From Escherichia coli (GTDB lineage: Bacteria; Pseudomonadota; Gammaproteobacteria; Enterobacterales; Enterobacteriaceae), in the NCBI RefSeq assembly GCF_016903815.1, contig NZ_CP069973.1: DNA of 64,000 nt. One strand, written 5' to 3'. The translations under genes and the position numbers were made by a program. Numbering within the stretch: position 1 is the first letter of the stretch; each line of letters opens with the position of its first letter. Under the pieces are notes generated by a model that was not told where the DNA came from, made no database searches, and saw nothing but the letters and a program-made list of their open reading frames with translations. This document shows, one piece after another, positions 5,953 through 41,163 of this stretch.

Positions 5953-7125
<1,173 letters not shown>

Positions 7126-13730: not shown

Positions 13731-13747
13731 TGCTCTTTAACAATTTA
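13731..13747 (+). promoter_or_regulatory. rrn leader boxA antitermination element (tgctctttaacaattta)
   Basis: Matches the rrn boxA consensus GCTCTTTAACAA in the leader between P2 and the 16S gene. Confidence 0.7.
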
Positions 13748-13874
13748 TCAGACAATCTGTGTGGGCACTCGAAGATACGGATTCTTAACGTCGCAAGACG
13801 ATAAATGAATACCAAGTCTCAAGAGTGAACACGTAATTCATTACGAAGTTTAATTCTTTGAGCATCAAACTTTT

Positions 13875-15416
<1,542 letters not shown>

Positions 15417-15484
15417 CCTTAAAGAACTGTGCTTTGCAGTGCTCACACAGATTGTCTGATGAAAATGAGCAGTAAAACCTCTAC

Positions 15485-15561
<77 letters not shown>

Positions 15562-15603
15562 AATTTGCACCGCAAATTTGAAGAGGTTTTAACTACATGT
15601 TAT

Positions 15604-15679
15604 GGGGCTATAGCTCAGCTGGGAGAGCGCCTGCTTTGCACGCAGGAGGTCTGCGGTTCGATCCCGCATAGCTCCACCA
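15604..15679 (+). tRNA. alaT: tRNA-Ala (anticodon TGC) in the 16S-23S spacer
   Basis: GGGGCTATAGCTCAGCTGGGAGAGCGCCTGCTTTGCACGCAGGAGGTCTGCGGTTCGATCCCGCATAGCTCCACCA. Confidence 0.97.
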
Positions 15680-15862
15680 TCTCTGTAGTGATTAAATAAA
15701 AAATACTTCAGAGTGTACCTGCAAAGGTTCACTGCGAAGTTTTGCTCTTTAAAAATCTGGATCAAGCTGAAAATTGAAACACTGAACAATGAAAGTTGTT
15801 CGTGAGTCTCTCAAATTTTCGCAACACGATGATGAATCGAAAGAAACATCTTCGGGTTGTGA

Positions 15863-18767
<2,905 letters not shown>

Positions 18768-18859
18768 ACAACGCCGAAGGTGTTTTGGCGGATGAGAGAA
18801 GATTTTCAGCCTGATACAGATTAAATCAGAACGCAGAAGCGGTCTGATGAAACAGAATT

Positions 18860-18979
18860 TGCCTGGCGGCCTTAGCGCGGTGGTCCCACCTGACCCCATG
18901 CCGAACTCAGAAGTGAAACGCCGTAGCGCCGATGGTAGTGTGGGGTCTCCCCATGCGAGAGTAGGGAACTGCCAGGCAT
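18860..18979 (+). rRNA. rrfA: 5S ribosomal RNA, 120 nt
   Basis: TGCCTGGCGGC...GGGAACTGCCAGGCAT, the canonical E. coli 5S ends. Confidence 0.95.
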
Positions 18980-19106: not shown

Positions 19107-19628
19107 ATGAAACATTCATTTGAAGTAAAAATTGCCGCTGTAAATCATTACCTGGCCGGTCATGCAGGCATCATTTCTACGGCAAAACTCTTTCAACTTT
19201 CTCACACCAGCCTCTCACACTGGATTAATCTTTTTCTTCTTCACGGTCCTCAGGCACTGGATTGCAGACACAAGCGTAGCTATTCTCCTGAAGATAAACT
19301 TTGCGTGGTTCTTTATGCTCTCGGGCATTCTGAGTCTCTACCCCGGGTAGCTGCCCGGTTTAACATTCCCAGCCACAACACGGTTAAAAACTGGATAAAA
19401 GGCTACCGCAAATCTGGTAATGAGGCCTTTATCAGGCGCAGGAAGGAGAAATGCATGACCCGTTCTGATGATACCCATGAAAACGAGGCAAACATGACGC
19501 CGGAAGAGATGAAGAATGAGCTGCGTTATCTTCGCGCAGAAAATGCATATCTGAAAGCCATGCAGGAGCATCTCCTGGAAAAAAAGCGCCAGGAGCTGGA
19601 GAAAAAACGAAAGTCATCCGGAGCCTGA
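19107..19628 (+). CDS. IS3-family transposase OrfA (helix-turn-helix / leucine-zipper part)
   Basis: Track ORF 19098..19628; the ATG at 19107 lies 8 nt after GAAGG; the C-terminus ...RYLRAENAYLKAMQEHLLEKKRQELEKKRK is the coiled-coil typical of IS3 OrfA. Confidence 0.85.
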   Translation: MKHSFEVKIAAVNHYLAGHAGIISTAKLFQLSHTSLSHWINLFLLHGPQALDCRHKRSYSPEDKLCVVLYALGHSESLPRVAARFNIPSHNTVKNWIKGYRKSGNEAFIRRRKEKCMTRSDDTHENEANMTPEEMKNELRYLRAENAYLKAMQEHLLEKKRQELEKKRKSSGA

Positions 19629-19732
19629 GGTGCGGACACTGCCAGTCTGATCTGTTAAAGGCTGCAGGGCTGGCCAGAAGCACGCTGTACTACCAGCTGT
19701 CACTGCAGAAGGCTAAGGACAAGTATGCTGAT

Positions 19733-20488
<756 letters not shown>

Positions 20489-23671: not shown

Positions 23672-23700
23672 AAAGCCCGTGAATATTCACGGGCTTTTTT
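23672..23700 (+). terminator. dsbA rho-independent terminator (aaagcccgtgaatattcacgggctttttt)
   Basis: Stem gcccgtg/cacgggc followed by six T; the IS200-like copy A begins immediately after the T-run. Confidence 0.8.
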
Positions 23701-24413
23701 GTGCACAGAAAACCCCCAGCTAGGCTGGGGGTTCCGGAAAGCTTTCAGCTTTAAGCCAGTTATTAAAACCCCTTTTGATTTGTTAAAACACCTTGCGGTC
23801 TGGCAACTGCAAGTGTCAAACAAGAAATCAAAAGGGGGTCCCAATGGGGAACGAAAAGAGCTTAGCGCACACCCGATGGAACTGTAAATATCACATAGTT
23901 TTTGCGCCAAAATACCGAAGACAGGTGTTCTACAGAGAGAAGCGTAGAGCAATAGGCAGTATTTTGAGAAAGCTGTGTGAGTGGAAAAGTGTACGGATTC
24001 TGGAAGCTGAATGCTGTGCAGATCATATCCATATGCTTGTGGAGATCCCGCCCAAAATGAGCGTATCCGGCTTTATGGGATATCTGAAAGGGAAAAGCAG
24101 TCTGATGCTTTACGAGCAGTTTGGTGATTTGAAATTCAAATACAGGAACAGGGAGTTCTGGTGCAGAGGGTACTACGTCGATACGGTGGGTAAGAACACG
24201 GCGAAGATACAGGATTACATAAAGCACCAGCTTGAAGAGGATAAAATGGGAGAGCAGTTATCGATTCCCTATCCGGGCAGCCCGTTTACGGGCCGTAAGT
24301 AACGAAGTTGGATGCAAATGTCAGATCGTGTGCGCCTGTTAGGGCGCGGCTGGTAAGAGAGCCTTATAGGCGCATTTGAAAAACCTCCGGCTATGCCGGA
24401 GGATATTTATTTA
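23701..24413 (+). mobile_element. IS200-like element (IS200/IS605 family), copy A, about 0.71 kb
   Basis: Bounded by sequence identity to copy B (40452..41163). Left-end hairpin cccccagc-tag-gctggggg, a second structured region sequestering the tnpA RBS, and a right-end hairpin cctccggc-tat-gccggagg. The left boundary is uncertain by a few nt inside the T-run. Confidence 0.85.
23844..24302 (+). CDS. tnpA: IS200-type HUH (Y1) transposase TnpA (152 aa)
   Basis: Translation MGNEKSLAHTRWNCKYHIVFAPKYRRQVFYREKRRAIGSILRKLCEWKSVRILEAECCADHIHMLVEIPPKMSVSGFMGYLKG... with the HxH (HIHML) motif; closely matches recalled IS200/IS1541 TnpA. Confidence 0.9.
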   Translation: MGNEKSLAHTRWNCKYHIVFAPKYRRQVFYREKRRAIGSILRKLCEWKSVRILEAECCADHIHMLVEIPPKMSVSGFMGYLKGKSSLMLYEQFGDLKFKYRNREFWCRGYYVDTVGKNTAKIQDYIKHQLEEDKMGEQLSIPYPGSPFTGRK

Positions 24414-24519
24414 TTATTTAATAAATATAAATACATTCTGATAATGCGTCCTGCCGCTGGACATTATTTCAGCATAAGTGGATATTCAAAGTTTTGCTGT
24501 TTTATCAGGGAATATTTAT

Positions 24520-25950
24520 ATGATACGTAAGTCAGCTACAGGTGTTATTGTTGCGTTAGCCGTAATCTGGGGGGGTGGCACATGGTACACAGGTACGCAA
24601 ATTCAGCCTGGTGTCGAAAAGTTTATTAAAGATTTTAACGATGCTAAAAAGAAAGGTGAACATGCCTACGATATGACGTTAAGTTATAAAAACTTTGACA
24701 AAGGCTTTTTTAATTCTCATTTTCAAATGCAAATAACATTTGATAACGGTGCACCCGATCTCAATATCAAGCCAGGCCAGAAAGTTGCATTTGATGTGGA
24801 TGTTGAGCACGGTCCGTTGCCCATCACAATGTTAATGCGTAGTAATGTCATCCCCGCACTGGCAGCGGCAAAAGTGAACTTAGTGAATAATGAACTGACA
24901 CAACCGCTATTTATCGCCGCAAAAAATAAATCGCCCGTGGAAGCGACATTGCGATTCGCGTTTGGTGGCTCATTCTCCACGACATTAGATGTTGCCCCTG
25001 CAAAATATGGAAAGTTTTCTTTTGGTGAGGGCCAGTTTACTTTTAATGGTGATGGTAGTTCATTGTCTAACCTGGATATTGAAGGCAAAGTCGAAGATAT
25101 TGTTCTGCAATTATCACCAATGAACAAAGTAACGGCGAAAAGTTTTACCATTGATTCTCTGGCGCGATTAGAAGAAAAGAAATTTCCGGTTGGTGAAAGC
25201 GAGTCGAAATTTAATCAGATTAACATTATCAATCACGGGGAAGACGTTGCCCAAATCGATGCTTTCGTTGCAAAAACCAGGCTGGATCGCGTTAAAGACA
25301 AAGATTATATCAATGTCAATCTGACCTACGAACTTGATAAGTTAACAAAAGGGAATCAGAAACTCGGTAGTGGTGAGTGGTCATTGATTGCTGAATCTAT
25401 TGATCCCTCAGCGGTGCGCCAATTTATCATCCAGTATAACATTGCGATGCAGAAGCAGCTTGCTGCACACCCTGAGTTAGCAAACGATGAAGTTGCTCTG
25501 CAAGAAGTGAATGCTGCATTGTTCAAAGAGTATTTACCGTTATTACAAAAAAGTGAGCCGACCATTAAACAACCGGTAAGATGGAAGAACGCACTCGGCG
25601 AACTAAATGCCAATCTGGATATCAGTATTGCCGACCCAGCCAAATCCTCATCATCCACAAACAAAGATATTAAATCGCTCAATTTTGATGTGAAGTTACC
25701 GCTTAATGTCGTCACAGAAACCGCAAAACAGCTTAATTTATCTGAAGGGATGGATGCTGAAAAAGCGCAAAAGCAGGCTGATAAACAAATCAGCGGGATG
25801 ATGACCTTAGGTCAGATGTTTCAGTTAATCACGATTGACAACAATACCGCCTCGCTGCAACTGCGTTATACACCGGGTAAAGTTGTTTTTAACGGACAGG
25901 AGATGAGCGAAGAAGAATTTATGTCTCGTGCCGGACGTTTTGTTCATTAA
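24520..25950 (+). CDS. yihF: YihF (DUF945 family) protein with N-terminal membrane anchor, 476 aa
   Basis: Track ORF 24478..25950; the internal ATG at 24520 gives MIRKSATGVIVALAVIWGGGTWYTGTQIQPGVEKFIKDFN.... Confidence 0.88.
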   Translation: MIRKSATGVIVALAVIWGGGTWYTGTQIQPGVEKFIKDFNDAKKKGEHAYDMTLSYKNFDKGFFNSHFQMQITFDNGAPDLNIKPGQKVAFDVDVEHGPLPITMLMRSNVIPALAAAKVNLVNNELTQPLFIAAKNKSPVEATLRFAFGGSFSTTLDVAPAKYGKFSFGEGQFTFNGDGSSLSNLDIEGKVEDIVLQLSPMNKVTAKSFTIDSLARLEEKKFPVGESESKFNQINIINHGEDVAQIDAFVAKTRLDRVKDKDYINVNLTYELDKLTKGNQKLGSGEWSLIAESIDPSAVRQFIIQYNIAMQKQLAAHPELANDEVALQEVNAALFKEYLPLLQKSEPTIKQPVRWKNALGELNANLDISIADPAKSSSSTNKDIKSLNFDVKLPLNVVTETAKQLNLSEGMDAEKAQKQADKQISGMMTLGQMFQLITIDNNTASLQLRYTPGKVVFNGQEMSEEEFMSRAGRFVH

Positions 25951-25990
25951 AATACTCACTCGCCTCTGCTCATTCAGAGGCGAGCAAAAT

Positions 25991-26923
25991 TTACTTGTCC
26001 TGCCGCTGTGATGACATCAACGACGTCAGAAGCCGGTCTTTTTCCTGCCACAGTGAGTTCAGCCATTGCTGAAAATGGCGCTTAAAGCTTTTGTCATTGA
26101 TGTAGTCGCCATGTAACTCATCGGCAATAGGCTGTAAATCCACATGTACGACAATCCGCGTCAGTTTACCGCTTAACATATCGAAGAACGGCTGACGGTT
26201 ATTGTCCGGATAACACAGCGTAACATTAAGCAGTTTATCGAATTGTTTACCCAGTACATTTAGCGCCATCGCAATGCCTGCCGCCTTTGGTGGCAACAAG
26301 TTTTGAAAAGTGGAGTGGGTTTGCTGATGTTTTTCTTGCGTGAAACGGGAGCCTTCAACGAAATTGACAATGGTGGTGGGATGCAGGCGAAACTTTTCAC
26401 AAGAACGCCGAGTGGTTTCAACATCTTTACCACGTCGCTCCGGATGACGTAATAAATAAGCGCGGGAATAACGCTTCATAAACGGCATATCCAGCGCCCA
26501 GCATGCCAGGCCAAGAAAAGGCACCCAGGCCAGCTGCTGCTTGAGGAAATATTTATTCATCGGAATGTGCTTACGAAACAGCACGCACAGTACGACAATA
26601 TCTGCCCAACTACGGTGGTTACAAATAAGCAGATACCAGTTCTTCTTACTTAACCCTTCCAGCCCGTGAACTTCCCATTGCAGGTGTGGGTTCAGATGCA
26701 GTAATACCGCAAGGCATTCACACCAGCAATACATCATAAAATCACAAAAACGCGAAACCTTTCGCCAAATGACTGGCACAGGTAGCAATAGTTTTACAAT
26801 CCCGGCAATGATGATCGGGACGGAACAAAAAATAGTGACCAAAATGGTCAATACGATACTCAGCAAAAGGGTTATCGCAGCGAGTATTCTCGTCATAATG
26901 AATTTATTCAAAAGGTTAGCCAT
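25991..26923 (-). CDS. yihG: YihG, putative 1-acyl-sn-glycerol-3-phosphate acyltransferase family membrane protein (310 aa)
   Basis: Track ORF 25991..26947; the internal start gives [29 protein letters not shown]...; contains an [10 protein letters not shown] acyltransferase-like motif. Confidence 0.85.
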
Positions 26924-27286
26924 AGACAGTGCGCTAAAGAAGCGCAAGGCGCAGATTTTAGCAGAAAACGACCCAAATAACGGATGATCCTTAAGGAGAA
27001 AAATAATTCATATCTATCCACATTAGAAAAAATCCCATTATCTTAATTACTAGGGATGGTCTTATTTTTAACTGCATGAAAAACAAAGACAAACATCATG
27101 CTGTAAAAAGCATGATAATAAATTAAAAGCGATGTAAATAATTTATGCACAAAGTTATCCACATGACGATTTGCGAGCGATCCAGAAGATCTACAAAAGA
27201 TTTTCACGAAAAGCGGTGAAAAACTCATGTTTTCATCCTGTCTGTGGCATCCTTTACCCATAATCTGATAAACAGGCACGGACATT

Positions 27287-30073
27287 ATGGTTCAGATCCC
27301 CCAAAATCCACTTATCCTTGTAGATGGTTCATCTTATCTTTATCGCGCATATCACGCGTTTCCCCCGCTGACTAACAGCGCAGGCGAGCCGACCGGTGCG
27401 ATGTATGGTGTCCTCAACATGCTGCGCAGTCTGATCATGCAATATAAACCGACGCATGCAGCGGTGGTCTTTGACGCCAAGGGAAAAACCTTTCGTGATG
27501 AACTGTTTGAACATTACAAATCACATCGCCCGCCAATGCCGGACGATCTGCGAGCACAAATCGAACCTCTGCACGCGATGGTTAAAGCGATGGGACTGCC
27601 GCTGCTGGCGGTTTCTGGCGTAGAAGCGGACGACGTTATCGGTACTCTGGCGCGCGAAGCCGAAAAAGCCGGGCGTCCGGTGCTGATCAGCACTGGCGAT
27701 AAAGATATGGCGCAGCTGGTGACGCCAAATATTACGCTTATCAATACCATGACGAATACCATCCTCGGACCGGAAGAGGTGGTGAATAAGTACGGCGTGC
27801 CGCCAGAACTGATCATCGACTTCCTGGCGCTGATGGGTGACTCCTCCGATAACATCCCTGGCGTACCGGGCGTCGGTGAAAAAACCGCGCAGGCATTGCT
27901 GCAAGGTCTTGGCGGCCTGGATACGCTGTATGCCGAGCCAGAAAAAATTGCCGGGTTGAGCTTCCGTGGCGCGAAAACAATGGCAGCGAAGCTCGAGCAA
28001 AACAAAGAAGTTGCTTATCTCTCATACCAGCTGGCGACGATTAAAACCGACGTTGAACTGGAGCTGACCTGTGAACAACTGGAAGTGCAGCAACCGGCAG
28101 CGGAAGAGTTGTTGGGGCTGTTCAAAAAGTATGAGTTCAAACGCTGGACTGCTGATGTCGAAGCGGGCAAATGGTTACAGGCCAAAGGGGCAAAACCAGC
28201 CGCGAAGCCACAGGAAACCAGTGTTGCAGACGAAGCACCAGAAGTGACGGCAACGGTGATTTCTTATGACAACTACGTCACCATCCTTGATGAAGAAACA
28301 CTGAAAGCGTGGATTGCGAAGCTGGAAAAAGCGCCGGTATTTGCATTTGATACCGAAACCGACAGCCTTGATAACATCTCTGCTAACCTGGTCGGGCTTT
28401 CTTTTGCTATCGAGCCAGGCGTAGCGGCATATATTCCGGTTGCTCATGATTATCTTGATGCGCCCGATCAAATCTCTCGCGAGCGTGCACTCGAGTTGCT
28501 AAAACCGCTGCTGGAAGATGAAAAGGCGCTGAAGGTTGGGCAAAACCTGAAATACGATCGCGGTATTCTGGCGAATTACGGCATTGAGCTGCGTGGGATT
28601 GCGTTTGATACCATGCTGGAGTCCTACATTCTCAATAGCGTTGCCGGGCGTCACGATATGGACAGCCTCGCGGAACGTTGGTTGAAGCACAAAACCATCA
28701 CTTTTGAAGAGATTGCGGGTAAAGGCAAAAATCAACTGACCTTTAACCAGATTGCCCTCGAAGAGGCCGGACGTTACGCCGCCGAAGATGCTGATGTCAC
28801 CTTGCAGTTGCATCTGAAAATGTGGCCGGATCTGCAAAAACACAAAGGGCCGTTGAACGTCTTCGAGAATATCGAAATGCCGCTGGTGCCAGTGCTTTCA
28901 CGCATTGAACGTAACGGTGTGAAGATCGATCCGAAAGTGCTGCACAATCATTCTGAAGAGCTCACCCTTCGTCTGGCTGAGCTGGAAAAGAAAGCGCATG
29001 AAATTGCAGGTGAGGAATTTAACCTTTCTTCCACCAAGCAGTTACAAACCATTCTGTTTGAAAAACAGGGCATTAAACCGCTGAAGAAAACGCCGGGTGG
29101 CGCGCCGTCAACGTCGGAAGAGGTACTGGAAGAACTGGCGCTGGACTATCCGTTGCCAAAAGTGATTCTGGAGTATCGTGGTCTGGCGAAGCTGAAATCG
29201 ACCTACACCGACAAGCTACCGCTGATGATCAACCCGAAAACCGGGCGTGTACATACCTCTTATCACCAGGCAGTAACCGCAACGGGACGTTTATCGTCAA
29301 CCGATCCTAACCTGCAAAACATTCCGGTGCGTAACGAAGAAGGTCGTCGTATCCGCCAGGCGTTTATTGCGCCAGAGGATTATGTGATTGTCTCGGCGGA
29401 CTACTCGCAGATTGAACTGCGCATTATGGCGCATCTCTCGCGTGACAAAGGCTTGCTGACCGCATTCGCGGAAGGAAAAGATATCCACCGGGCTACGGCG
29501 GCAGAAGTGTTTGGTTTGCCACTGGAAACCGTAACCAGCGAGCAACGCCGTAGCGCGAAAGCGATCAACTTTGGTCTGATTTATGGCATGAGTGCTTTCG
29601 GTCTGGCGCGGCAATTGAACATTCCACGTAAAGAAGCGCAGAAGTACATGGACCTTTACTTCGAACGCTACCCTGGCGTGCTGGAGTATATGGAACGCAC
29701 CCGTGCTCAGGCGAAAGAGCAGGGCTACGTTGAAACGCTGGACGGACGCCGTCTGTATCTGCCGGATATCAAATCCAGCAATGGGGCTCGTCGTGCAGCG
29801 GCTGAACGTGCAGCCATTAACGCGCCAATGCAGGGAACCGCCGCCGACATTATCAAACGGGCGATGATTGCCGTTGATGCGTGGCTACAGGCTGAGCAAC
29901 CGCGTGTACGTATGATCATGCAGGTACACGATGAACTGGTATTTGAAGTTCATAAAGATGATGTCGATGCCGTCGCGAAGCAGATTCATCAACTGATGGA
30001 AAACTGTACCCGTCTGGATGTGCCGTTGCTGGTGGAAGTGGGGAGTGGCGAAAACTGGGATCAGGCGCACTAA
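27287..30073 (+). CDS. polA: DNA polymerase I (928 aa)
   Basis: Translation [42 protein letters not shown]... with the 5' nuclease, 3'-5' exonuclease and polymerase regions (…[23 protein letters not shown]…). Confidence 0.97.
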
Positions 30074-30220
30074 GATTCGCCTGAACATGCCCTTTTTTCG
30101 TAAGTAAGCAACATAAGCTGTCACGTTTTGTGATGGCTATTAGAAATTCCTATGCAACAACTGAAAAAAAATTACAAAAAGTGCTTTCTGAACTGAACAA
30201 AAAAGAGTAAAGTTAGTCGC

Positions 30221-30329
30221 GTAGGGTACAGAGGTAAGATGTTCTATCTTTCAGACCTTTTACTTCACGTAATCGGATTTGGCTGAATATTTTAGCCGCC
30301 CCAGTCAGTAATGACTGGGGCGTTTTTTA
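30221..30329 (+). ncRNA. spf: Spot 42 small RNA (spf), 109 nt
   Basis: GTAGGGTACAGAGGTAAGATGTTCTATCTTTCAGACCTTTTACTTCACGTAATCGGATTTGGCTGAATATTTTAGCCGCCCCAGTCAGTAATGACTGGGGCGTTTTTTA matches recalled Spot 42, including its terminator. Confidence 0.88.
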
Positions 30330-30351
30330 TTGGGCGAAAGAAAAGATCCGT

Positions 30352-30440
30352 AATGCCTGATACGCCATGTTTATCAGGCCAACGGTAAAATCGTAATCTA
30401 TTGAATTTACGGGCCGGATACGCCACATCCGGCACAAGCA
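30352..30440. repeat. REP palindromic units between spf and engB
   Basis: gcctgatacgccatgtttatcaggcc ... gggccggatacgccacatccggca. Confidence 0.6.
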
Positions 30441-30454
30441 TTAAGGCAAGAAAA

Positions 30455-31087
30455 TCATTCGCCGTCCTGCGTTTCTTCTACAGGCTGCATCTCGCTAAAC
30501 CAGGTATCCAGTTTCTGCCGCAGCTTGTCCACGCCTTGTTTCTTCAACGAAGAAAACGTTTCAACCTGCACATCACCGTTAAACGCCAGCACCGCTTCAC
30601 GCACCATATTCAATTGCGCTTTACGTGCGCCGCTTGCCAGTTTGTCCGCTTTGGTCAGCAGCACCAGCACGGCGATATTGCTGTCTACCGCCCACTCAAT
30701 CATCTGCTGATCCAAATCTTTCAGCGGATGGCGAATATCCATTAGCACCACCAGACCTTGCAGGCTCTGACGTTTTTCGAGGTATTCGCCGAGCGCGCGT
30801 TGCCATTTGCGCTTCATCTCTTCCGGGACTTCCGCGTAGCCATAGCCGGGCAGGTCAACCAGACGCTTGCCGTCAGCCACTTCAAACAGGTTGATAAGCT
30901 GGGTGCGCCCTGGGGTTTTTGAGGTACGAGCCAGGCTTTTCTGGTTAGTCAGCGTGTTCAGCGCGCTGGATTTACCTGCGTTGGAACGGCCTGCAAAAGC
31001 CACTTCAATTCCGGTATCGGAAGGTAGGTGGCGAATATCAGGCGCACTCATCACAAAATGCGTCTGTTGATAATTCAAATTAGTCAA
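30455..31087 (-). CDS. engB: Ribosome biogenesis GTPase EngB/YihA (210 aa)
   Basis: Translation [46 protein letters not shown]... with G1-G4 GTPase motifs. Confidence 0.93.
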
Positions 31088-31357
31088 AGCGGTCGTCTCC
31101 GTCAGTCAAAGCTTTGCGGCGATTATACCTGAACCATAATAAAAGGCGGATTTTTCGGCGTGAGCGTTGTAAGTAAAAGCCATACGCTTTGTGAGACATT
31201 GCCGATAGTCTTTATGCGAAATAGCAGAGAAAATTCTGCGATGCATGTCAAATAAGCTATATAAATCAGTTAATTGCTTTTATATAAAACTCTGAAAATG
31301 TGCAAATACTGATGGCGGTTGATTGTTTGTTTAAAGCAAAGGCGTAAAGTAGCACCC

Positions 31358-31600
31358 ATAGAGCGAGGACGCTAACAGGAACAATGACTCAGGATGAGGG
31401 TCAGGAGCGCCAGGAGGCGAAGACAGAGGATTGTCAGGAAGACAAACGTCCGGAGACGTAATTAAACGGAAATGGAATCAACACGGATTGTTCCGGCTAA
31501 TGGAAAAACAGGGTGTGTTGGCGGCCTGCAAGGATTGTAAGACCCGTTAAGGGTTATGAGTCAGGAAAAAAGGCGACAGAGTAATCTGTCGCCTTTTTTC
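31358..31600 (+). ncRNA. csrC: CsrC small RNA (CsrA-sequestering)
   Basis: It lies in the engB-yihI intergenic region where csrC maps in K-12, has at least a dozen GGA-containing motifs (AGGAC, CAGGAAC, CAGGATG, CAGGAGC, CAGGAGG, GAGGATT, CAGGAAG ...) and ends in the terminator aaggcgacagagtaatctgtcgccttttttc. The 5' end is approximate. Confidence 0.65.
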
Positions 31601-31668
31601 TTTGCTTGCTTTCTGTTAGATTCCGCCGCAAATCTATACTGAATAAAACGGCTAAAAGACGAACCATT

Positions 31669-32178
31669 ATGAAACCATCATCTTCAAACTCACGCAGCAA
31701 AGGTCATGCAAAAGCGCGTCGAAAAACACGCGAGGAGCTGGATCAGGAAGCTCGTGACCGTAAGCGTCAGAAAAAACGTCGTGGTCATGCGCCGGGCAGC
31801 CGCGCAGCGGGCGGTAACACCACGTCAGGCAGCAAAGGCCAGAACGCACCGAAAGATCCACGTATTGGCAGTAAAACCCCTATTCCATTGGGCGTGACTG
31901 AAAAAGTCACCAAACAGCACAAACCGAAGAGTGAGAAACCTATGCTTTCACCGCAGGCGGAGTTGGAGTTACTGGAAACGGATGAGCGTCTGGATGCGCT
32001 GCTGGAACGTCTGGAGGCAGGCGAAACCCTGAGCGCCGAAGAGCAATCCTGGGTGGATGCCAAACTGGATCGTATTGATGAGTTGATGCAGAAACTCGGC
32101 CTCTCTTATGACGATGACGAAGAAGAGGAAGAAGACGAGAAGCAAGAAGACATGATGCGTCTGCTGCGGGGCAACTAA
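31669..32178 (+). CDS. yihI: Der GTPase-activating protein YihI (169 aa)
   Basis: Track ORF 31606..32178; the internal ATG at 31669 gives [40 protein letters not shown]..., highly basic at the N-terminus and acidic at the C-terminus. Confidence 0.9.
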
Positions 32179-32366
32179 CGGATTGCCGCCGTGGGCCTTC
32201 CCGTTCTGCTGATAACCCTTCCGGTTATATGTTATCTGGTGTGGTTATTCGTTAAACTACAGCGGTTGTCGCGGCGACAAAAGTGGCTGCGCAACCGGCT
32301 GATGACCCGAAACGGGCATCCGCCGGTACGCCGTAGCCGCCAGAGACGCCATCGGAAGGAGTGAGC

Positions 32367-33740
32367 ATGTCTGTACAGCAAATCGACTGGGATCTGGCCC
32401 TGATCCAGAAATATAACTATTCCGGGCCACGATACACCTCGTACCCGACCGCGCTGGAGTTTTCAGAAGACTTCGGCGAACAGGCGTTTTTACAAGCCGT
32501 GGCGCGCTATCCTGAGCGTCCATTATCTCTCTACGTACATATCCCGTTCTGCCATAAGCTTTGTTACTTCTGCGGTTGCAATAAGATTGTTACTCGCCAG
32601 CAGCACAAGGCCGATCAGTATCTGGACGCGCTGGAGCAAGAAATCGTCCATCGTGCACCGCTTTTTGCCGGGCGCAAGGTGAGCCAGCTGCACTGGGGCG
32701 GTGGTACGCCGACGTATCTGAACAAAGCGCAAATCAGCCGTCTGATGAAGCTGCTGCGCGAAAACTTCCAGTTCAATGCCGATGCGGAGATTTCGATCGA
32801 AGTCGATCCGCGCGAAATCGAACTGGATGTACTCGATCATTTACGCGCCGAGGGCTTTAATCGCCTGAGCATGGGCGTGCAGGACTTCAACAAAGAAGTG
32901 CAACGTCTGGTTAACCGCGAGCAGGATGAAGAGTTCATCTTTGCACTGCTTAACCATGCGCGTGAGATTGGCTTTACCTCCACCAACATCGACCTGATTT
33001 ACGGCCTGCCGAAACAAACGCCGGAGAGTTTCGCTTTTACCCTGAAACGCGTGGCGGAGCTGAACCCCGATCGTCTGAGCGTCTTTAACTATGCGCATCT
33101 GCCGACCATTTTTGCTGCTCAGCGCAAAATCAAAGATGCTGACTTGCCGAGTCCGCAGCAAAAACTCGATATCCTGCAGGAAACCATCGCCTTCCTGACG
33201 CAATCGGGCTATCAGTTTATCGGTATGGATCACTTTGCCCGTCCGGATGACGAACTGGCGGTGGCCCAGCGTGAAGGCGTGCTGCATCGTAACTTCCAGG
33301 GCTACACCACTCAGGGCGATACCGATCTGCTGGGGATGGGCGTTTCCGCCATCAGCATGATTGGCGACTGCTACGCGCAGAACCAGAAAGAGTTGAAGCA
33401 GTACTATCAGCAAGTGGATGAACAAGGCAATGCGCTGTGGCGTGGTATTGCGCTAACGCGTGATGACTGTATTCGCCGCGATGTGATTAAGTCGCTCATC
33501 TGCAACTTCCGTCTGGATTACGCTCCCATTGAGCAACAGTGGGATTTGCACTTCGCTGATTACTTTGCCGAAGATCTCAAGCTGCTCGCCCCGTTAGCAA
33601 AAGATGGGCTGGTGGATGTGGATGAGAAGGGGATTCAGGTGACGGCGAAAGGTCGCTTGCTGATCCGCAACATTTGCATGTGCTTTGATACCTATCTGCG
33701 CCAGAAAGCGCGGATGCAGCAGTTCTCACGGGTGATTTAA
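32367..33740 (+). CDS. hemN: Oxygen-independent coproporphyrinogen III oxidase HemN (radical SAM), 457 aa
   Basis: Translation MSVQQIDWDLALIQKYNYSGPRYTSYPTALEF... with the CxxxCxxC motif (CHKLCYFCGC). The alternative start at 32361 (MSMSVQQ) is not excluded. Confidence 0.93.
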   Translation: MSVQQIDWDLALIQKYNYSGPRYTSYPTALEFSEDFGEQAFLQAVARYPERPLSLYVHIPFCHKLCYFCGCNKIVTRQQHKADQYLDALEQEIVHRAPLFAGRKVSQLHWGGGTPTYLNKAQISRLMKLLRENFQFNADAEISIEVDPREIELDVLDHLRAEGFNRLSMGVQDFNKEVQRLVNREQDEEFIFALLNHAREIGFTSTNIDLIYGLPKQTPESFAFTLKRVAELNPDRLSVFNYAHLPTIFAAQRKIKDADLPSPQQKLDILQETIAFLTQSGYQFIGMDHFARPDDELAVAQREGVLHRNFQGYTTQGDTDLLGMGVSAISMIGDCYAQNQKELKQYYQQVDEQGNALWRGIALTRDDCIRRDVIKSLICNFRLDYAPIEQQWDLHFADYFAEDLKLLAPLAKDGLVDVDEKGIQVTAKGRLLIRNICMCFDTYLRQKARMQQFSRVI

Positions 33741-33807
33741 ATAGTGAATGGCGCTTCGTTTACAAAGTAGAAAACGAAAGCGCCATCAATGTGCTGAGAA
33801 CAAGATT

Positions 33808-33897
33808 GCCTGATGCGCTACGCTTATCAGGCCTACAAAACCTGTTGAAAATATTGCTTTTGTAGACCGGATAAGGCGTTCACGCCGCATCCGGCAT
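33808..33897. repeat. BIME/REP cluster downstream of hemN
   Basis: tgcctgatgcgctacgcttatcaggcctac ... tgtagaccggataaggcgttcacgccgcatccggca. Confidence 0.7.
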
Positions 33898-33929
33898 GAA
33901 CAAAGAGCACTTCATCAGCAATCTGAAAC

Positions 33930-34040
33930 TCAGCTAAACAGCCCAATCATCGCGGCACACAGCACGGCAGCAACGGCAGTTTGCGGTGTGTGGCTGTCAA
34001 CTGCGCCACTCGATACCAGATTAATTATTGATTCCAGCAT
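33930..34040 (-). CDS. yshB: Small protein YshB (36 aa)
   Basis: Reverse-strand ORF MLESIINLVSSGAVDSHTPQTAVAAVLCAAMIGLFS preceded by a GGGGAGAG Shine-Dalgarno; its position between hemN and glnG matches K-12 yshB as I recall it. Confidence 0.6.
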   Translation of the reverse strand: MLESIINLVSSGAVDSHTPQTAVAAVLCAAMIGLFS

Positions 34041-34151
34041 AATGACTCTCCCCGTTTTCCGGGCAAGATCATACTGAACTTATCGGAACAGTAAAGCGCA
34101 AAATACCAGCAATTTGCGCTCAATAATCAATCTTTACACACAAGCCGTGAA

Positions 34152-35561
34152 TCACTCCATCCCCAGCTCTTTTAACTTCCGCGTCAGAGTGTTACGCCCC
34201 CAGCCGAGTAGCCGCGCCGCTTCCTGTTTATGCCCCTGCGTATGTCGCAGCGCGGTGGTCAGTAACGTCCGCTCCAGCTCAGGCTGCGCTTCGGAAAGCA
34301 GATTTTGATGACCGGAACGCAGCGCCCTGTCTGCCCACTGCGCTAACAGCGTCGCCCAACTGTCCGGTTGCATTTGCGAAGTACTCTCCGCAACCGTTGA
34401 TTCAAACAGTTCGCCAGGCAAATCCTGAATCAACACTTCCTGTCCGGCAGCCATTACCGTTAGCCAGCGGCAGGTGTTTTCCAGCTGGCGCACGTTGCCT
34501 GGCCACGCCAGACGCGTCAGCGCGGCTTCGGTTTCCGGATGCAGTAACTTCGCTTCTACGCCCAGTTCGCGCGCGGCAACCTGTAAAAAATGGCGTGCCA
34601 GGCGGGGAATATCTTCCCGACGCTCACGCAGTGGTGGCAGATGAACGCGGATGACGTTCAGGCGGTGGAACAGATCCTCACGGAACTTACCTTCCTGCAC
34701 CCGCTGTTCAAGATTCTGGTGAGTGGCAGCGATAATCCGCACATCCACTTTCACCGGCGCATAGCCGCCAACGCGATAAAACTGACCGTCTGCCAGCACG
34801 CGCAGCAAACGCGTCTGCACATCCAGCGGCATATCACCAATTTCGTCGAGAAATAACGTGCCGCCATCGGCCTGTTCAAAACGCCCCTGACGAATGGTAT
34901 TCGCGCCGGTAAACGCGCCTTTCTCGTGACCAAACAGTTCTGATTCGATCAAATCCTTCGGGATAGCCGCCATATTCAGCGCGATAAACGGCGCTTTGGC
35001 TCGCGGACTGTGGCGATGCAGGGCATGAGCGACCAGCTCTTTACCGGTGCCGGATTCGCCGTTAATCAGCACGCTAATAGAAGAACGCGAAAGCCGACCG
35101 ATAATACGGAACACGTCCTGCATGGCTGGCGCTTCGCCGATGATATCGGTCGTTGGGCCGTTAAGCTGAACATTACGCGGCTGCTGCTGTTCCTGGTAAT
35201 GACTGATGGCGCGCTCAACCAGGGCGACGGCTTCGTCGATATCAAACGGTTTGGGCAGATAATCAAACGCCCCTTGTTGATAGGCGCTGACGGCAGCATC
35301 CAGATCGGAATGTGCGGTCATAATGATGACCGGAAGCATCGGATGGCGCTGTTTAATCTGCTTGAGCAGCGCCAGCCCGTCCATTCCCGGCATACGGATA
35401 TCTGAAAGCAGCACATCCGGCGTTTTGCTCGCCAGCGCCTCCAGTACCTCCGCGCCGTTCTCAAATGTTGTACAGGTTAAACCCGCTCCAGCGAGCGCAC
35501 GTTCAAGCACCCAACGGATGGAACTATCGTCATCGACTACCCAGACTATCCCTCGTTGCAT
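34152..35561 (-). CDS. glnG: Nitrogen regulation response regulator NtrC/GlnG (sigma54 activator), 469 aa
   Basis: Track ORF 34152..35621; the internal start gives [28 protein letters not shown]...; contains the AAA+ GESGTGKE and GAFTGA motifs and a C-terminal HTH. Confidence 0.95.
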
Positions 35562-35572
35562 AAACGTCACCT

Positions 35573-36622
35573 TTATTTCCTGATAGGCAGGTAAACCGAG
35601 AACTCGGTATGACCTGGCCAACTGGTAAATTCAATTTTGCCTGAATGCTGATCAATCAAATTACGGGCGATGGATAAGCCAAGCCCGGTGCCACCTTCGC
35701 GGCCACTGACCATCGGATAAAACAGCGTATCCTGCAAATGAGGCGGAATGCCCGGCCCGTTATCTTCCACATCAATTCGCGCCGCCAGCCGATAGCGCTC
35801 GCCGTGTAAGGTCAGTTGAAACGCGGTGCGGGTACGCAGAATGATTTCACCGCCTTCCGGCCCCAGCGCCTGTAGCGCATTGCGCACAATATTCAGCAAG
35901 ACCTGTTCAATTTGATCCGGGTCGTGCGCCAGTTCCGGCAGGCTGGGATCGTAATCACGAATCAACCGCACGTTGTCCGGCAGTTCCATCGACACCAACG
36001 TCACCACGCGTTCAGCCACTTTGTGAATACTTTCGGTAACGCGCGTACCGGGCAGTTGCGGTCCCAACAGACGGTCGACCAGATTTCGCAGCCGGTCCGC
36101 CTGTTCGATAATCACTTTGGTATATTCGAGTAGTGACGGGTCAGGTAATGCTTTGCTGAGTAGCTGCGCCGCGCCACGTAAACCGCCAAGCGGATTTTTA
36201 ATCTCATGTGCCAGGCCGCGCACTAAATCACGGGCAGCAACCTGCTGGGCGTGCTGTAGCTGTTCCTGACTTAAGCGGCGCTGGTTATCCATCGGTGCCA
36301 TCTCCAGCAGGATCATGCCGTCTGGCATACGCTGGGCCGTCACAGAAAGGATATGCGAGCGCCCGTCGATGACCAGCGTCACTTCGTTATCGGTAAAACC
36401 TTGCCCCGCCTCCAGACTTTCTTGCATCAGCTCGATATTTAATGAGAAGTAGCTCAATAGTTCCGGTAACGGTGTACCAAACAATTTGCGGGAGCTTTGG
36501 GCGAGCAGTTGTTGCGCGGCGGGGTTGGCGTAATGGATCGCCAGGTTGTCATCGATTAACAAAATACTGTTAATCAGCGAGTTGAGGATCTGCCCAGCAT
36601 CGGGCTGCGTGCCTGTTGCCAT
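35573..36622 (-). CDS. glnL: Nitrogen regulation sensor kinase NtrB/GlnL (349 aa)
   Basis: Translation [40 protein letters not shown]...; H-box HEIKNPLGG. Confidence 0.95.
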
Positions 36623-36795
36623 AAAGCAGTCTCCTGAACAGGTTGCACCATTTTAGTGCATTATAGCTTTTTACGGATAAAAAGCGCGTAGCATCAGAGA
36701 ATTGACGGAGAAAAAAGCCCATGCAGAGATGGGCTGAAAGTTTCCACGGCAACTAAATCCCGGCGTTGTTGCGCCGGGTAGTACAACTTCAACTA

Positions 36796-38205
36796 TTAGA
36801 CGCTGTAGTACAGCTCAAACTCTACCGGATGCGGAGTCATACGCACGCGGTCATCTTCTTCGCGACGCAGAGCGATGTACGCATCGATCGCTTCATCAGT
36901 GAACACACCACCGGCTTTCAGGAACTCGCGGTCCAGATCCAGTTCGTTCAGTGCTTCTTCCAGAGAACCAGCAACCTGTGGGATCTCTTTCGCTTCTTCC
37001 GGCGGCAGGTCATACAGGTTTTTGTCCATCGCTTCGCCCGGATGGATCTTGTTCTTGATACCGTCAAGACCGGCCATCAGCAGGGCAGCAAAGCACAGGT
37101 ACGGGTTAGCCGCCGGGTCCGGGAAACGTACTTCGATACGACGTGCTTTCGGAGAAGAAACCACCGGAATACGGATAGACGCAGAACGGTTGCGTGCAGA
37201 GTAAGCCAGCATTACCGGTGCTTCGTAGCCCGGGACCAGACGCTTGTAAGAGTTGGTGGTCGGGTTTGCCAGGGCATTAATCGCTTTCGCGTGTTTGATT
37301 ACGCCGCCAATATAGTACAGCGCCTGCTCAGACAGACCTGCGTATTTGTCGCCTGCGAACAGGTTGACGCCGTTTTTAGACAGCGACATGTGGCAGTGCA
37401 TACCGGAGCCGTTATCACCGAACATCGGTTTTGGCATAAAGGTCGCGGTTTTACCGAAGCGGTGCGCTACGTTGTGCACAACATATTTGTAGATCTGAAT
37501 TTCGTCAGCTTTTTTGGTCATGGTATTGAAGCGGGTAGCCACTTCGTTCTGACCAGCAGTCGCTACTTCGTGGTGATGGGCTTCAACCACCAGGCCCATC
37601 TGTTCCATCACCAGACACATTTCAGAACGAATATCCTGAGCAGAGTCTACCGGCGGAACCGGGAAGTAACCGCCTTTCACTGCCGGACGGTGACCTTTGT
37701 TACCACCTTCGTATTGGGTGGAGGAGTTCCATGCGCCTTCGATATCGTCGATAGCAACGTGAGAACCGGAGATAGATGATCCGAAACGGATGTCATCGAA
37801 CAGGAAGAATTCAGGTTCTGGCCCGAACAGTACGGTGTCGGCAATGCCAGTGGAACGCAGGTAATCTTCGGCGCGCTTCGCAATGGAGCGCGGGTCACGG
37901 TCATAGCCTTGCAGGGTGCCAGGTTCAAGGATGTCGCAACGGATAATCAGGGTGGAGTCGGCGAAGAACGGGTCAATCACTGCGGTGGATGCGTCTGGCA
38001 TCAGCACCATGTCGGACTCGTTAATGCCTTTCCAGCCGCCAATCGAGGAGCCGTCAAACATTTTGCCTTCTTCGAAGAATTCAGCATTCACCTGATGAGC
38101 AGGGATAGTGACGTGCTGTTCTTTACCTTTAGTATCGGTGAAGCGCAAATCAACAAACTTCACTTCGTGCTCGTTCAGCATCGTCAGTACGTGTTCAGCG
38201 GACAT
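36796..38205 (-). CDS. glnA: Glutamine synthetase GlnA (469 aa)
   Basis: Translation [40 protein letters not shown]... matches GlnA. Confidence 0.97.
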
Positions 38206-38288
38206 ACTTTAACTCTCCTGGATTGGTCATGGTCGTCGTGGTAACGAAATCTGCAATTATTTTGGCCGTGTCGCCGTAAAAAAGATAA

Positions 38289-38305
38289 AGCGAAATCTGT
38301 GCCAA
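38289..38305 (-). promoter_or_regulatory. glnAp2 sigma54 promoter (TTGGCACAGATTTCGCT on the minus strand)
   Basis: -24 GG and -12 GC elements with the canonical spacing, about 85 bp upstream of the glnA start. Confidence 0.8.
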
Positions 38306-38344
38306 CTTTTAAATTGCCCCTAAAAGGCGTTATCATGCTTAACA

Positions 38345-38430
38345 TCGTGCAAAAGGGCTGCACCATGATGTGAATGTTGCACCAATATAGTGCTTCAATG
38401 GAAACATTAAGCACCATATTGGTGCAATGA
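38345..38430. promoter_or_regulatory. NtrC enhancer sites upstream of glnA (TGCACCA-N-TGGTGCA palindromes)
   Basis: Near-perfect palindrome gcaccatattggtgc at 38411-38425 plus related half-sites tgcaccaatatagtgc and tgcaccatgatg upstream. Confidence 0.75.
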
Positions 38431-38577
38431 CCTTTGGATAACCCTTTTTATGCTCCGTGAAAGCAATCACAAAGGGACTCTGCAATACTTGTTTGCGGAG
38501 GATGTTTGTGATCCTGTTTTGTAGTGCGATTAATCCGTGTACAATAACGCGCTATTTCTAATGCCTGAGGCAAAGTT

Positions 38578-40401
38578 GTGATCGAAAAATTGCGTAATAT
38601 CGCCATCATCGCGCACGTAGACCATGGTAAAACCACCCTGGTAGACAAGCTGCTCCAACAATCCGGTACGTTCGACTCTCGTGCCGAAACCCAAGAGCGC
38701 GTGATGGACTCCAACGATTTGGAGAAAGAGCGTGGGATTACCATCCTCGCGAAAAACACCGCTATCAAATGGAATGATTACCGTATCAACATCGTTGATA
38801 CCCCGGGGCACGCCGACTTCGGTGGTGAAGTTGAACGTGTAATGTCCATGGTAGACTCAGTGCTGCTGGTGGTTGACGCATTTGACGGCCCGATGCCGCA
38901 AACGCGCTTCGTAACCAAAAAAGCGTTTGCTTACGGCCTGAAGCCGATTGTTGTTATCAACAAAGTTGACCGCCCTGGCGCGCGTCCTGACTGGGTTGTG
39001 GATCAGGTATTCGACCTGTTCGTTAACCTCGACGCGACCGACGAGCAGCTGGACTTCCCGATCGTTTACGCTTCTGCGCTGAACGGTATCGCGGGTCTGG
39101 ACCACGAAGATATGGCGGAAGACATGACCCCGCTGTATCAGGCGATTGTTGACCACGTTCCTGCGCCGGACGTTGACCTTGACGGTCCGTTCCAGATGCA
39201 GATTTCTCAGCTCGATTACAACAGCTATGTTGGCGTTATCGGCATTGGCCGCATCAAGCGCGGTAAAGTGAAGCCGAACCAGCAGGTCACTATCATCGAT
39301 AGCGAAGGCAAAACCCGTAACGCGAAAGTCGGTAAAGTGCTGGGCCACCTCGGTCTGGAACGTATCGAAACCGACCTGGCGGAAGCTGGCGATATCGTGG
39401 CGATCACGGGCCTGGGCGAACTGAACATTTCTGACACCGTTTGCGACACGCAAAACGTTGAAGCGCTGCCGGCACTCTCCGTTGATGAGCCGACCGTTTC
39501 TATGTTCTTCTGCGTTAACACCTCGCCGTTCTGCGGTAAAGAAGGTAAGTTCGTAACGTCTCGTCAGATCCTGGATCGTCTGAACAAAGAACTGGTACAC
39601 AACGTTGCTCTGCGCGTAGAAGAAACCGAAGACGCCGATGCGTTCCGCGTTTCTGGTCGTGGCGAACTGCACCTGTCTGTTCTGATCGAAAACATGCGTC
39701 GTGAAGGTTTCGAACTGGCGGTATCCCGTCCGAAAGTTATCTTCCGTGAAATCGACGGTCGTAAACAAGAGCCGTATGAAAACGTGACTCTGGACGTTGA
39801 AGAACAGCATCAGGGTTCTGTAATGCAGGCGCTGGGCGAACGTAAAGGCGACCTGAAAAACATGAATCCAGACGGTAAAGGCCGCGTACGTCTCGACTAC
39901 GTGATCCCAAGCCGTGGTCTGATTGGTTTCCGTTCTGAGTTCATGACCATGACTTCCGGTACGGGTCTGCTGTACTCCACCTTCAGCCACTACGACGACG
40001 TACGTCCGGGTGAAGTGGGTCAGCGTCAGAATGGCGTACTGATCTCTAACGGTCAGGGTAAAGCGGTAGCGTTCGCGCTGTTCGGTCTGCAGGATCGCGG
40101 TAAGCTGTTCCTCGGTCACGGTGCAGAAGTTTACGAAGGTCAGATTATCGGTATTCATAGCCGCTCTAACGACCTGACTGTAAACTGCCTGACCGGTAAG
40201 AAACTGACCAACATGCGTGCTTCCGGTACTGACGAAGCCGTTGTTCTGGTTCCGCCTATCCGCATGACTCTGGAACAAGCTCTGGAGTTCATCGATGATG
40301 ACGAACTGGTAGAAGTGACTCCGACCTCTATCCGTATTCGTAAACGTCACCTGACGGAAAACGATCGTCGTCGCGCCAACCGCGCACCGAAAGACGATTA
40401 A
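38578..40401 (+). CDS. typA: Ribosome-associated translational GTPase TypA/BipA (607 aa, GTG start)
   Basis: Translation [32 protein letters not shown]... matches BipA. Confidence 0.95.
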
Positions 40402-40424
40402 TTTCGTTTTTTAGTTATAAAAAA

Positions 40425-40451
40425 CCTGCCATCGCTGGCAGGTTTTTTTTT
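40425..40451 (+). terminator. typA rho-independent terminator (cctgccatcgctggcagg plus nine T)
   Basis: Stem cctgcca/tggcagg followed by a T-run; the IS200-like copy B begins immediately after. Confidence 0.8.
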
Positions 40452-41163
40452 GTGCACAGAAAACCCCCAGCTAGGCTGGGGGTTCCGGAAAGCTTTCAGC
40501 TTTGAGCCAGTTATTAAAACCCCTTTTGATTTGTTAAAACACCTTGCGGTCTGGCAACTGCAAGTGTCAAACAAGAAATCAAAAGGGGGTCCCAATGGGG
40601 AACGAAAAGAGCTTAGCGCACACCCGATGGAACTGTAAATATCACATAGTTTTTGCGCCAAAATACCGAAGACAGGTGTTCTACAGAGAGAAGCGTAGAG
40701 CAATAGGCAGTATTTTGAGAAAGCTGTGTGAGTGGAAAAGCGTACGGATTCTGGAAGCTGAATGCTGTGCAGATCATATCCATATGCTTGTGGAGATCCC
40801 GCCCAAAATGAGCGTATCCGGGTTTATGGGATATCTGAAAGGGAAAAGCAGTCTGATGCTTTACGAGCAGTTTGGTGATTTGAAATTCAAATACAGGAAC
40901 AGGGAGTTCTGGTGCAGAGGGTACTACGTCGATACAGTGGGTAAGAACACGGCGAAGATACAGGATTACATAAAGCACCAGCTTGAAGAGGATAAAATGG
41001 GAGAGCAGTTATCGATTCCCTATCCGGGCAGCCCGTTTACGGGCCGTAAGTAACGAAGTTGGATGCAAATGTCAGATCGTGTGCGCCTGTTAGGGCGCGG
41101 CTGGTAAGAGAGCCTTATAGGCGCATTTGAAAAACCTCCGGCTATGCCGGAGGATATTTATTA
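40452..41163 (+). mobile_element. IS200-like element, copy B, same orientation as copy A
   Basis: Near-identical to 23701..24413 (only a few substitutions seen); the same terminal hairpins are present. Confidence 0.85.
40595..41053 (+). CDS. tnpA: IS200-type HUH (Y1) transposase TnpA (152 aa)
   Basis: Track ORF 40544..41053; the internal ATG gives MGNEKSLAHTRWNCKYHIVF..., with an amino-acid sequence identical to copy A. Confidence 0.9.
   Translation: MGNEKSLAHTRWNCKYHIVFAPKYRRQVFYREKRRAIGSILRKLCEWKSVRILEAECCADHIHMLVEIPPKMSVSGFMGYLKGKSSLMLYEQFGDLKFKYRNREFWCRGYYVDTVGKNTAKIQDYIKHQLEEDKMGEQLSIPYPGSPFTGRK

Follow-up and report, generated by a model that had tools for sequence, protein, structure and literature searches.

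Two direct IS200C copies flanking the yihF–typA segment of an Escherichia coli chromosome

IS200, an insertion sequence (IS) of Salmonella enterica and Escherichia coli, carries an internal bidirectional terminator hairpin at nucleotides (nt) 12–34, and its STnc490/art200 RNA has been described as antisense to the 5' untranslated region (5'UTR) of the transposase gene tnpA (PMC4513863). For the IS200/IS605 family, insertion favours placement of the active strand on the lagging-strand template (PMC5027513). Chromosomal duplications mediated by IS200 are known from Salmonella Typhimurium (Haack & Roth 1995, Genetics 141:1245, as cited in PMC13423834 and PMC8496262), and 'flanked' IS-mediated amplification has been given a diagnostic internal junction, which runs from the amplicon end through the IS into the amplicon start (PMC13423834). 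Here we describe two co-oriented copies of the IS200-like element IS200C in a 64,000-nt window of E. coli contig NZ_CP069973.1 (assembly GCF_016903815.1). The window is the whole stretch of DNA that was analysed, and all coordinates refer to it. Copy A lies between dsbA and yihF and copy B between typA and yihL, so that together they bracket a segment of core genes.

We consider it very likely that this pair consists of two separate, ordinary IS200C insertions behind terminators, made from different donors, which act as substrates for homologous recombination with short-tract conversion. On this account IS200C would move as single-stranded DNA ('peel and paste'), each copy landing on the lagging-strand template just 3' of a host terminator hairpin and its T-run, without duplication of the target. 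The dsbA–yihF copy would have come first and the typA–yihL copy later, from a donor of a different haplotype. The two direct copies would then recombine homologously, giving short-tract conversion, with crossover duplications being transient and deletions unfit; landing behind terminators would keep the copies intergenic, harmless and co-oriented. The arrangement as such is already known, in that the elements are annotated in RefSeq and IS copies as portable homology are textbook material, and it is common to ~50 sequenced isolates without visible consequence.

Two insertions of different haplotype and age

A repeat search together with base-by-base comparison identified an ungapped direct repeat in which positions 23695–24411 correspond to 40446–41162 at an offset of 16,751 nt, and beyond which similarity drops abruptly and completely on both sides. 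The first six bases of the shared stretch belong to the T-runs of two unrelated host terminators, those of dsbA and typA, and IS200C proper has a length of 711 nt in each copy. This length was fixed from the period of a perfect head-to-tail IS200C dimer in strain 98210 (NZ_CP173528.1); because the flank and the tip of the IS both end in TT, the ends carry an ambiguity of 1–2 nt. Exactly four substitutions distinguish the copies (23753/40504, 23990/40741, 24071/40822 and 24185/40936), which amounts to 99.44% identity and leaves difference-free runs of 58, 236, 80, 113 and 226 nt. One of the four falls in the 5'UTR and the other three are coding, each at a synonymous third-codon position, so that the two 152-residue TnpA proteins are identical. 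The initial annotation had described two near-identical copies in direct orientation that differ by a few substitutions, and would have given up this description below 95% identity; the pairwise comparison bears it out, and its coordinates were right to within 2 nt, with ends (24413 and 41163) that were 1–2 nt too long.

The order of the insertions could be read from related chromosomes. In a set of 5,426 complete E. coli genomes, which was used for all prevalence and junction queries, the dsbA–IS–yihF junction occurs in 106 and the typA–IS–yihL junction in 50. When exactly 711 nt were removed in silico at typA–yihL, the resulting empty site was unbroken and 100% identical over 1,001 nt to that of 37 sister genomes, so that a target-site duplication is absent, although a 2-nt TT duplication around a 709-nt element is formally possible given that flank and tip both read TT. 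Many of these 37 genomes have the dsbA copy. Because genomes with the dsbA copy thus retain a perfect empty typA|yihL site, the typA insertion is the younger one and is nested within a dsbA-positive clone; the dsbA copy was present in all 17 of the typA-positive genomes that were cross-checked (of 50).

Comparison of 12 IS200C copies from different loci showed that the four differences, at IS positions 53, 290, 371 and 485, are the very sites that tell two haplotypes apart, namely haplotype A (A,T,C,G), represented by the dsbA–yihF copy, and haplotype B (G,C,G,A), represented by the typA–yihL copy. Both are found at many loci and coexist within single genomes. Since the differences between the copies are precisely these diagnostic sites, the typA copy stems from a B-type donor and not from its A-type neighbour and, judged by their sequences, the two IS200C copies are independent insertions.

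IS200C is present at ≥80% of its length in 2,063 of the 5,426 genomes, and in the clone to which the window belongs it matches about 18–35 places per genome. For 22 copies spread over 5.10 Mb, chance alone would place ~1.5 pairs of neighbours per genome within 16.75 kb of each other, so that the bracketing of a segment by two copies is unremarkable in itself. Both IS–flank junctions are 100% identical to those of strain 7/2 (NZ_CP023820.1) and dozens of other clinical isolates. The clone is probably the multidrug-resistant clinical ST405 (sequence type 405) lineage, with relatives that include 'strain 405' and O102:H6 isolates, and within it the two insertions provide nested clonal markers (106 and 50 genomes).

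Placement behind terminators

The left end of each copy directly adjoins the T-run of a host terminator, that of dsbA or of typA. The same placement was seen at 10 of 10 further E. coli places found for the identical transposase, and in 8 of 11 relatives with a placeable left end, while 2 more had weaker or imperfect hairpins. These relatives, which span Edwardsiella, Budvicia, Erwinia, Vibrio, Sutterella and Firmicutes, came from a survey of at least 80 loci in species-representative genomes, in which the listed loci were those outside E. coli and Salmonella and the left end could be placed in 11; two loci with rearranged or truncated left ends (L014 and L019) were left out. Besides the window, the terminator-like loci are L002–L011, L015, L016, L018, L022, L024, L026, L035, L072 and L092.

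Under a strict definition of a terminator (perfect stem of ≥6 bp, loop of 3–10 nt, T-rich tail of 3–10 nt), 18 of 23 sites qualified, equivalent to 17 of 22 distinct sites, and three of the five that failed have imperfect but stable hairpins. By comparison, 0.33–0.41% of all window positions satisfy this definition, a background that rises to 8.2% for intergenic positions following an AT-rich pentamer that ends in T (P ~7e-15). About 6–9 nt separate the stem from the IS tip, and the orientation of the IS is fixed relative to the T-tail of the hairpin. Sites with a poor T-run (ATTATT, TTAATT, TTTGTT) nevertheless have the hairpin.

The right end of IS200C has the same geometry as these targets, with a GC hairpin followed by a 9-nt AT tail that ends in TT. 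In strain 98210, the genome with the most IS200 places (35), the typA copy is a perfect head-to-tail dimer at 6403–7824 of the extracted locus (corresponding to window positions 40452–41162), in which both units are of haplotype B, the second sits exactly behind the right end of the first, and the junction reads ...ATTTATT|GTGCAC.... Such a tandem right-end|left-end arrangement may fit a rule in which the target is a hairpin plus tail and terminators act as mimics of the right end. A tandem IS200 has also been recorded in Salmonella STK005 (PMC8496262).

Of 16 bins across the window, 15 show a positive GC skew, and the rrnA operon lies on the + strand, so that the + strand is the lagging-strand template and tnpA is co-directional with the fork. 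Both copies lie in one replichore and each follows a +-strand gene; their co-orientation is what the insertion mechanism predicts, and position 3' of a terminator hairpin on the lagging-strand template accounts for intergenic location and shared orientation alike.

We raise, as a tentative possibility, that IS200-group transposases choose their targets by structure, entering single-stranded DNA immediately 3' of GC-rich hairpins that carry a short T-rich tail, and that this rule is as yet undescribed; the pattern of sites would point to a structural basis for target choice by IS200C. A 2025–26 preprint found more terminator-like sequences upstream of ISs than expected, with the strongest effect for IS200/IS605, and read the association as limiting transposase expression and not as targeting. 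This preprint was the only hit when we searched the literature for explicit mention of terminators as IS200 targets, although the older IS200/IS1541 literature may describe it. If such targeting were real, terminators would be the safe landing sites of the family, replication and the gene upstream would together set the orientation of each copy, and copies that share a replichore would preferentially form direct repeats that interact by conversion. Seen in different phyla, terminator placement points to a testable rule by which the most compact autonomous IS may spare its host.

Probable exchange between the copies and alternative readings

Patches switched to the other haplotype, at diagnostic sites only, were found in 7 genomes that have both copies. 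EC2257 departs from the window at just three of 19,964 nt (40741, 40822 and 40936), and each of these changes gives its typA copy the haplotype A state, at IS positions 290, 371 and 485. The dsbA copy was instead the one altered in six genomes, which were recovered with a query consisting of the dsbA locus carrying a B-type IS, such that converted copies ranked first. It is switched to B at 290-371-485 in WCHEC96200, WCHEC000837 and NMBU-W10C18, at 290-371 in WCHEC4533 and Survcare321, and at 371 in FDAARGOS_1281. These six genomes have no other difference in 1.7 kb, and all of them have the typA copy, itself unaltered. Among all 106 dsbA copies, only these 6 are closer to haplotype B than is the copy of the window. 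No converted dsbA copy was found in the ~56 genomes with the dsbA insertion only, though exact haplotype-B copies sit elsewhere in them. Switched dsbA copies were thus confined to genomes that also have the typA copy, 6/50 compared with 0/56 (Fisher P = 0.009), a value not to be taken at face value since the genomes are related, and one that assumes a dsbA copy in all 50 typA-positive genomes, as confirmed in 17. From these sequence patterns, short-tract gene conversion between IS200 copies appears to have occurred several times in the lineage, probably with the neighbouring IS200C copy as donor. Mosaics at diagnostic sites make ectopic conversion between ISs that lie 16.7 kb from each other easy to read in natural genomes.

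The initial annotation had proposed that the pair supplies about 0.7 kb of homology for RecA-mediated deletion or duplication of the bracketed segment. Its direct-repeat premise holds and the mosaic haplotypes speak for exchange, but the predicted crossover products did not appear: synthetic queries (≥80% coverage) for the tandem-duplication junction typA–IS200–yihF and for the deletion junction dsbA–IS200–yihL each gave 0 hits in the 5,426 complete genomes, including the 50 with both copies, in a search that covers finished genomes, whose consensus assemblies do not show transient or subclonal duplications. In principle, RecA-dependent unequal exchange could yield a 16.75-kb tandem duplication with an internal typA–IS200–yihF junction, which would be expected to arise at low frequency, to be transient and to be lost in the absence of selection. 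The yihA/engB gene is essential, and deletion of the segment, with loss of yihA/engB, polA and glnA, should be lethal or severely counter-selected. The content of the segment suggests no obvious benefit from higher dosage, and copy-number variation here would be expected as a generic textbook possibility, not one specific to the locus.

Other origins for the pair can be weighed against these data. If the pair were a composite transposon, transposase would act on its outer ends, the left one in copy A and the right one in copy B, and carry polA–glnA–typA along as cargo; these two ends are indeed correctly oriented on one strand. The bracketed genes are, however, core genes in ancestral order, also found in K-12 and in ~5,400 genomes without the IS copies; the insertions were made at different times; and no copy of the unit was found in another context, its flanks occurring once per genome. 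IS608 excision falls steeply with element length, and a 17.5-kb single-strand circle is implausible. Excision of IS200/IS605 elements also takes place at the fork, in single-stranded form (PMC5027513). We give a composite transposon practically no credence, and regard it as effectively refuted by the ancestral core order and the different acquisition times of the IS copies. Derivation of one copy from the other, through local hopping or segmental duplication, might be suggested by copies that are co-oriented and merely 16.75 kb apart, yet the chance expectation given above already provides for a pair this close. The four differences are moreover the sites that separate two haplotypes known at many other loci, and exact haplotype-B copies sit elsewhere in the same genomes. 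A local origin is contradicted by the haplotypes and seems to us extremely improbable, by a hair less so than the transposon.

Two further alternatives concern the behaviour of the copies and are harder to dismiss. The copies might be recombinationally inert in practice, with the mosaics being short-read assembly or polishing artefacts of a 20-copy repeat. Several observations weigh in that direction and against conversion: nearly all other differences over 50 kb in the six genomes fall in the rrn and IS1397 repeats, with conflicting strain distributions that fit real repeat conversion but hybrid-assembly or polishing error as well; the switched positions all lie in the IS interior, where short reads lack an anchor in unique flanks, and position 53, nearest to unique flank, is never converted, as both models predict; these genomes hold further IS200C copies of either haplotype, so that the donor is not singled out; the probable shared ancestry of five of the six reduces the count to about 3–4 independent events; and the crossover product is absent from all genomes queried. 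The 50-kb flanks contain 0–3 single-nucleotide polymorphisms per genome in unique sequence, too few for placement on a tree. On the other side, many pipelines reproduced the copies base-perfectly, at typA in 48 of 50 genomes and at dsbA in at least 25 of those listed, with only 6 of 106 dsbA copies shifted to B; none was altered in the ~56 genomes that lack a neighbouring B copy but have B elsewhere; and EC2257 shows zero other differences in 20 kb. The 290/371 state is common to 5 assemblies from China, Norway and Germany, together with shared IS1397 and rrn markers, which argues for inheritance instead of error in each assembly and for the reality of at least that event; states found in one genome only may be products of repeat assembly. 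We regard a wholly artefactual origin of the mosaics as unlikely, if still worth reckoning with. Of similarly low probability in our view is the proposal that terminator positions reflect selection after insertion, such that IS200 enters any T-rich site and harmless copies survive, with no structural targeting. In its favour, a T-rich flank with TT at its end invariably precedes the left end, and insertions within genes would be purged. However, the matched intergenic background of 8.2% compares with 17 of 22 sites observed, the stem-to-tip distance is narrow and the orientation relative to the T-tail fixed, hairpins are present even where the T-run is poor, and relatives from Vibrio, Edwardsiella, Sutterella and Firmicutes show this placement again. 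We thus prefer two separate insertions behind terminators that have probably exchanged short tracts.

Element anatomy, neighbouring features and described systems

Both elements show the testable features that define the IS200 group: one Y1 gene, no terminal inverted repeats, no target duplication and lagging-strand orientation. RefSeq names both genes 'IS200/IS605-like element IS200C family transposase' (WP_000526135.1), and Pfam PF01797 (Y1_Tnp) is recorded for a protein identical to TnpA; since the 711-nt element leaves no room, there is no tnpB or other second gene. The position of the left-end hairpin matches that of the published IS200 internal terminator (PMC4513863), and the left- and right-end hairpins are kept in relatives from other genera. 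From family membership, transposition would be expected to proceed via single-stranded circular intermediates, catalysed by TnpA; the right-end|left-end junction in the strain 98210 dimer reads as a circle junction would, which is not proof of circles. The STnc490 matches lie on the tnpA-sense strand, which the Rfam model itself appears to represent.

Table 1. Positions of the IS200C copies, their parts and adjoining host features in the window
Feature	Position	Strand	Remarks
IS200C copy A	23701..24411	+	between dsbA and yihF; haplotype A; RefSeq-annotated
IS200C copy B	40452..41162	+	between typA and yihL; haplotype B; younger insertion
tnpA, copy A	23844..24302	+	152 residues; Y1 (HUH) transposase; WP_000526135.1
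tnpA, copy B	40595..41053	+	same protein as copy A
Left-end subterminal hairpin, copy A (AACCCCCAGC-TAG-GCTGGGGGTT)	23711..23733	+	from sequence; IS nt 11-33
Left-end subterminal hairpin, copy B	40462-40484	+	same feature as in copy A
Right-end hairpin (CCTCCGGC-TAT-GCCGGAGG) with 9-nt AT tail to IS tip, copy A	24384..24411	+	from sequence; hairpin proper 24384-24402
Right-end hairpin with tail, copy B	41135-41162	+	from sequence
Rfam STnc490 match, copy A	23711..23834	+	IS200 5'UTR/art200 region; 146 bits against a gathering score of 56
Rfam STnc490 match, copy B	40462-40585	+	IS200 5'UTR/art200 region
dsbA intrinsic terminator (stem GCCCGTG/CACGGGC + T6)	23675..23700	+	fold -19.2 kcal/mol; passes the strict definition
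typA intrinsic terminator (stem CCTGCCA/TGGCAGG + T9)	40425..40451	+	fold -17.7 kcal/mol; strict definition applied
Bracketed core segment	24412..40451		16,040 nt; ancestral gene order

The bracketed segment contains yihF, yihG, polA, Spot42, yihA/engB, CsrC, yihI, hemN, yshB, glnG, glnL, glnA, ES222 and typA, in agreement with the yihF-to-typA gene list of the initial annotation; the dsbA–yihF adjacency is also found in K-12 and in 5,415 genomes. Matches to small RNAs within it are Spot 42 (30211–30329, +), CsrC (31358–31611, +) and ES222 (38389–38496, +), the last placed between glnA and typA, and a frameshifted 'hypothetical protein' pseudogene annotated by RefSeq at 31384–31550 overlies CsrC. 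The glnL gene of strain 98210 is split into two annotated fragments, at ~1596–1792 of the extracted locus (window 35842–36025); alignment revealed an internal tandem duplication of 184 nt with 13 nt of filler, which, judged from the sequence, should inactivate NtrB.

Elsewhere in the window, an IS1397 (IS3-family) transposase gene with a programmed frameshift lies at 19107–20455 (+) between rrfA and mobB, and otherwise identical genomes differ at 19452 and 19651, the two states corresponding to alleles WP_100190636 and WP_100190637. IS1397 targets the palindromes of bacterial interspersed mosaic elements (BIMEs) and repetitive extragenic palindromic (REP) sequences. The rrnA operon (13875–18977) holds most of the differences among near-identical sister genomes over 50 kb (for example at 13953, 15790, 16797, 17081, 17090 and 18780), and its conflicting differences represent either frequent gene conversion between operons or noise in the assembly of repeats. 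A 48-nt inverted repeat (75% complementary; 13744–13791 and 15416–15463) flanks the 16S rRNA gene, an arrangement that we take to be consistent with a precursor processing stem. Finally, a 300-nt direct repeat of 72% identity (45380–45679 and 46790–47089) lies in the adjacent genes yihO and yihP of the major facilitator superfamily (MFS), which are presumably old paralogues.

Among described systems, IS200 of S. enterica and E. coli is the closest. It shares with IS200C a length of about 707–711 nt, a single 152-residue Y1 transposase without terminal inverted repeats, the left-end terminator hairpin at nt ~12–34, a structured 5'UTR with art200/STnc490, the right-end hairpin, the lack of target duplication and the presence of multiple chromosomal copies. 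The difference is in copy load only, with ~18–35 places per genome in this clone compared with an E. coli average of 2.9 (PMC4513863). The Salmonella Typhimurium duplications, as the later papers that cite them present them, resemble this locus in that direct IS200 copies with ~0.7 kb of homology recombined unequally to give a tandem duplication of the segment between them; here, by contrast, the 5,426 genomes contained no duplication junction, only short non-reciprocal patches. The same holds for 'flanked' IS-mediated amplification (Yelin & Kishony 2026, PMC13423834), in which two pre-existing co-oriented ISs likewise bracket a region, whereas the diagnostic junction (here typA–IS200–yihF) was seen in 0/5,426 genomes and a dosage benefit is not obvious.

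IS608 and ISDra2 resemble IS200C in preferring the lagging-strand template, in inserting 3' of a short specific sequence with no target duplication and, as expected from family membership, in single-strand peel-and-paste transposition. The target of those elements is a defined tetra- or pentanucleotide (TTAC, TTGAT), while all that IS200C sites have in common is an adjacent GC-rich hairpin and a T-rich tail with TT at its end. In this last respect IS200C is reminiscent of elements that target palindromes, such as IS1397 (a copy of which is also in the window, at ~19.1–20.5 kb) and ISKpn1 in BIMEs, ISPpu9 and ISPpu10 in REPs, and the REP-associated Y1 enzymes; as described for them (PMC8450116, PMC3333891), their targets are extragenic hairpins, and hairpin targeting confines copies to harmless intergenic sites. 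These elements belong to other transposase families, except for the REP-associated Y1 enzymes, and the hairpins behind which IS200C lies are diverse, gene-specific terminators and not members of a repeated REP family.

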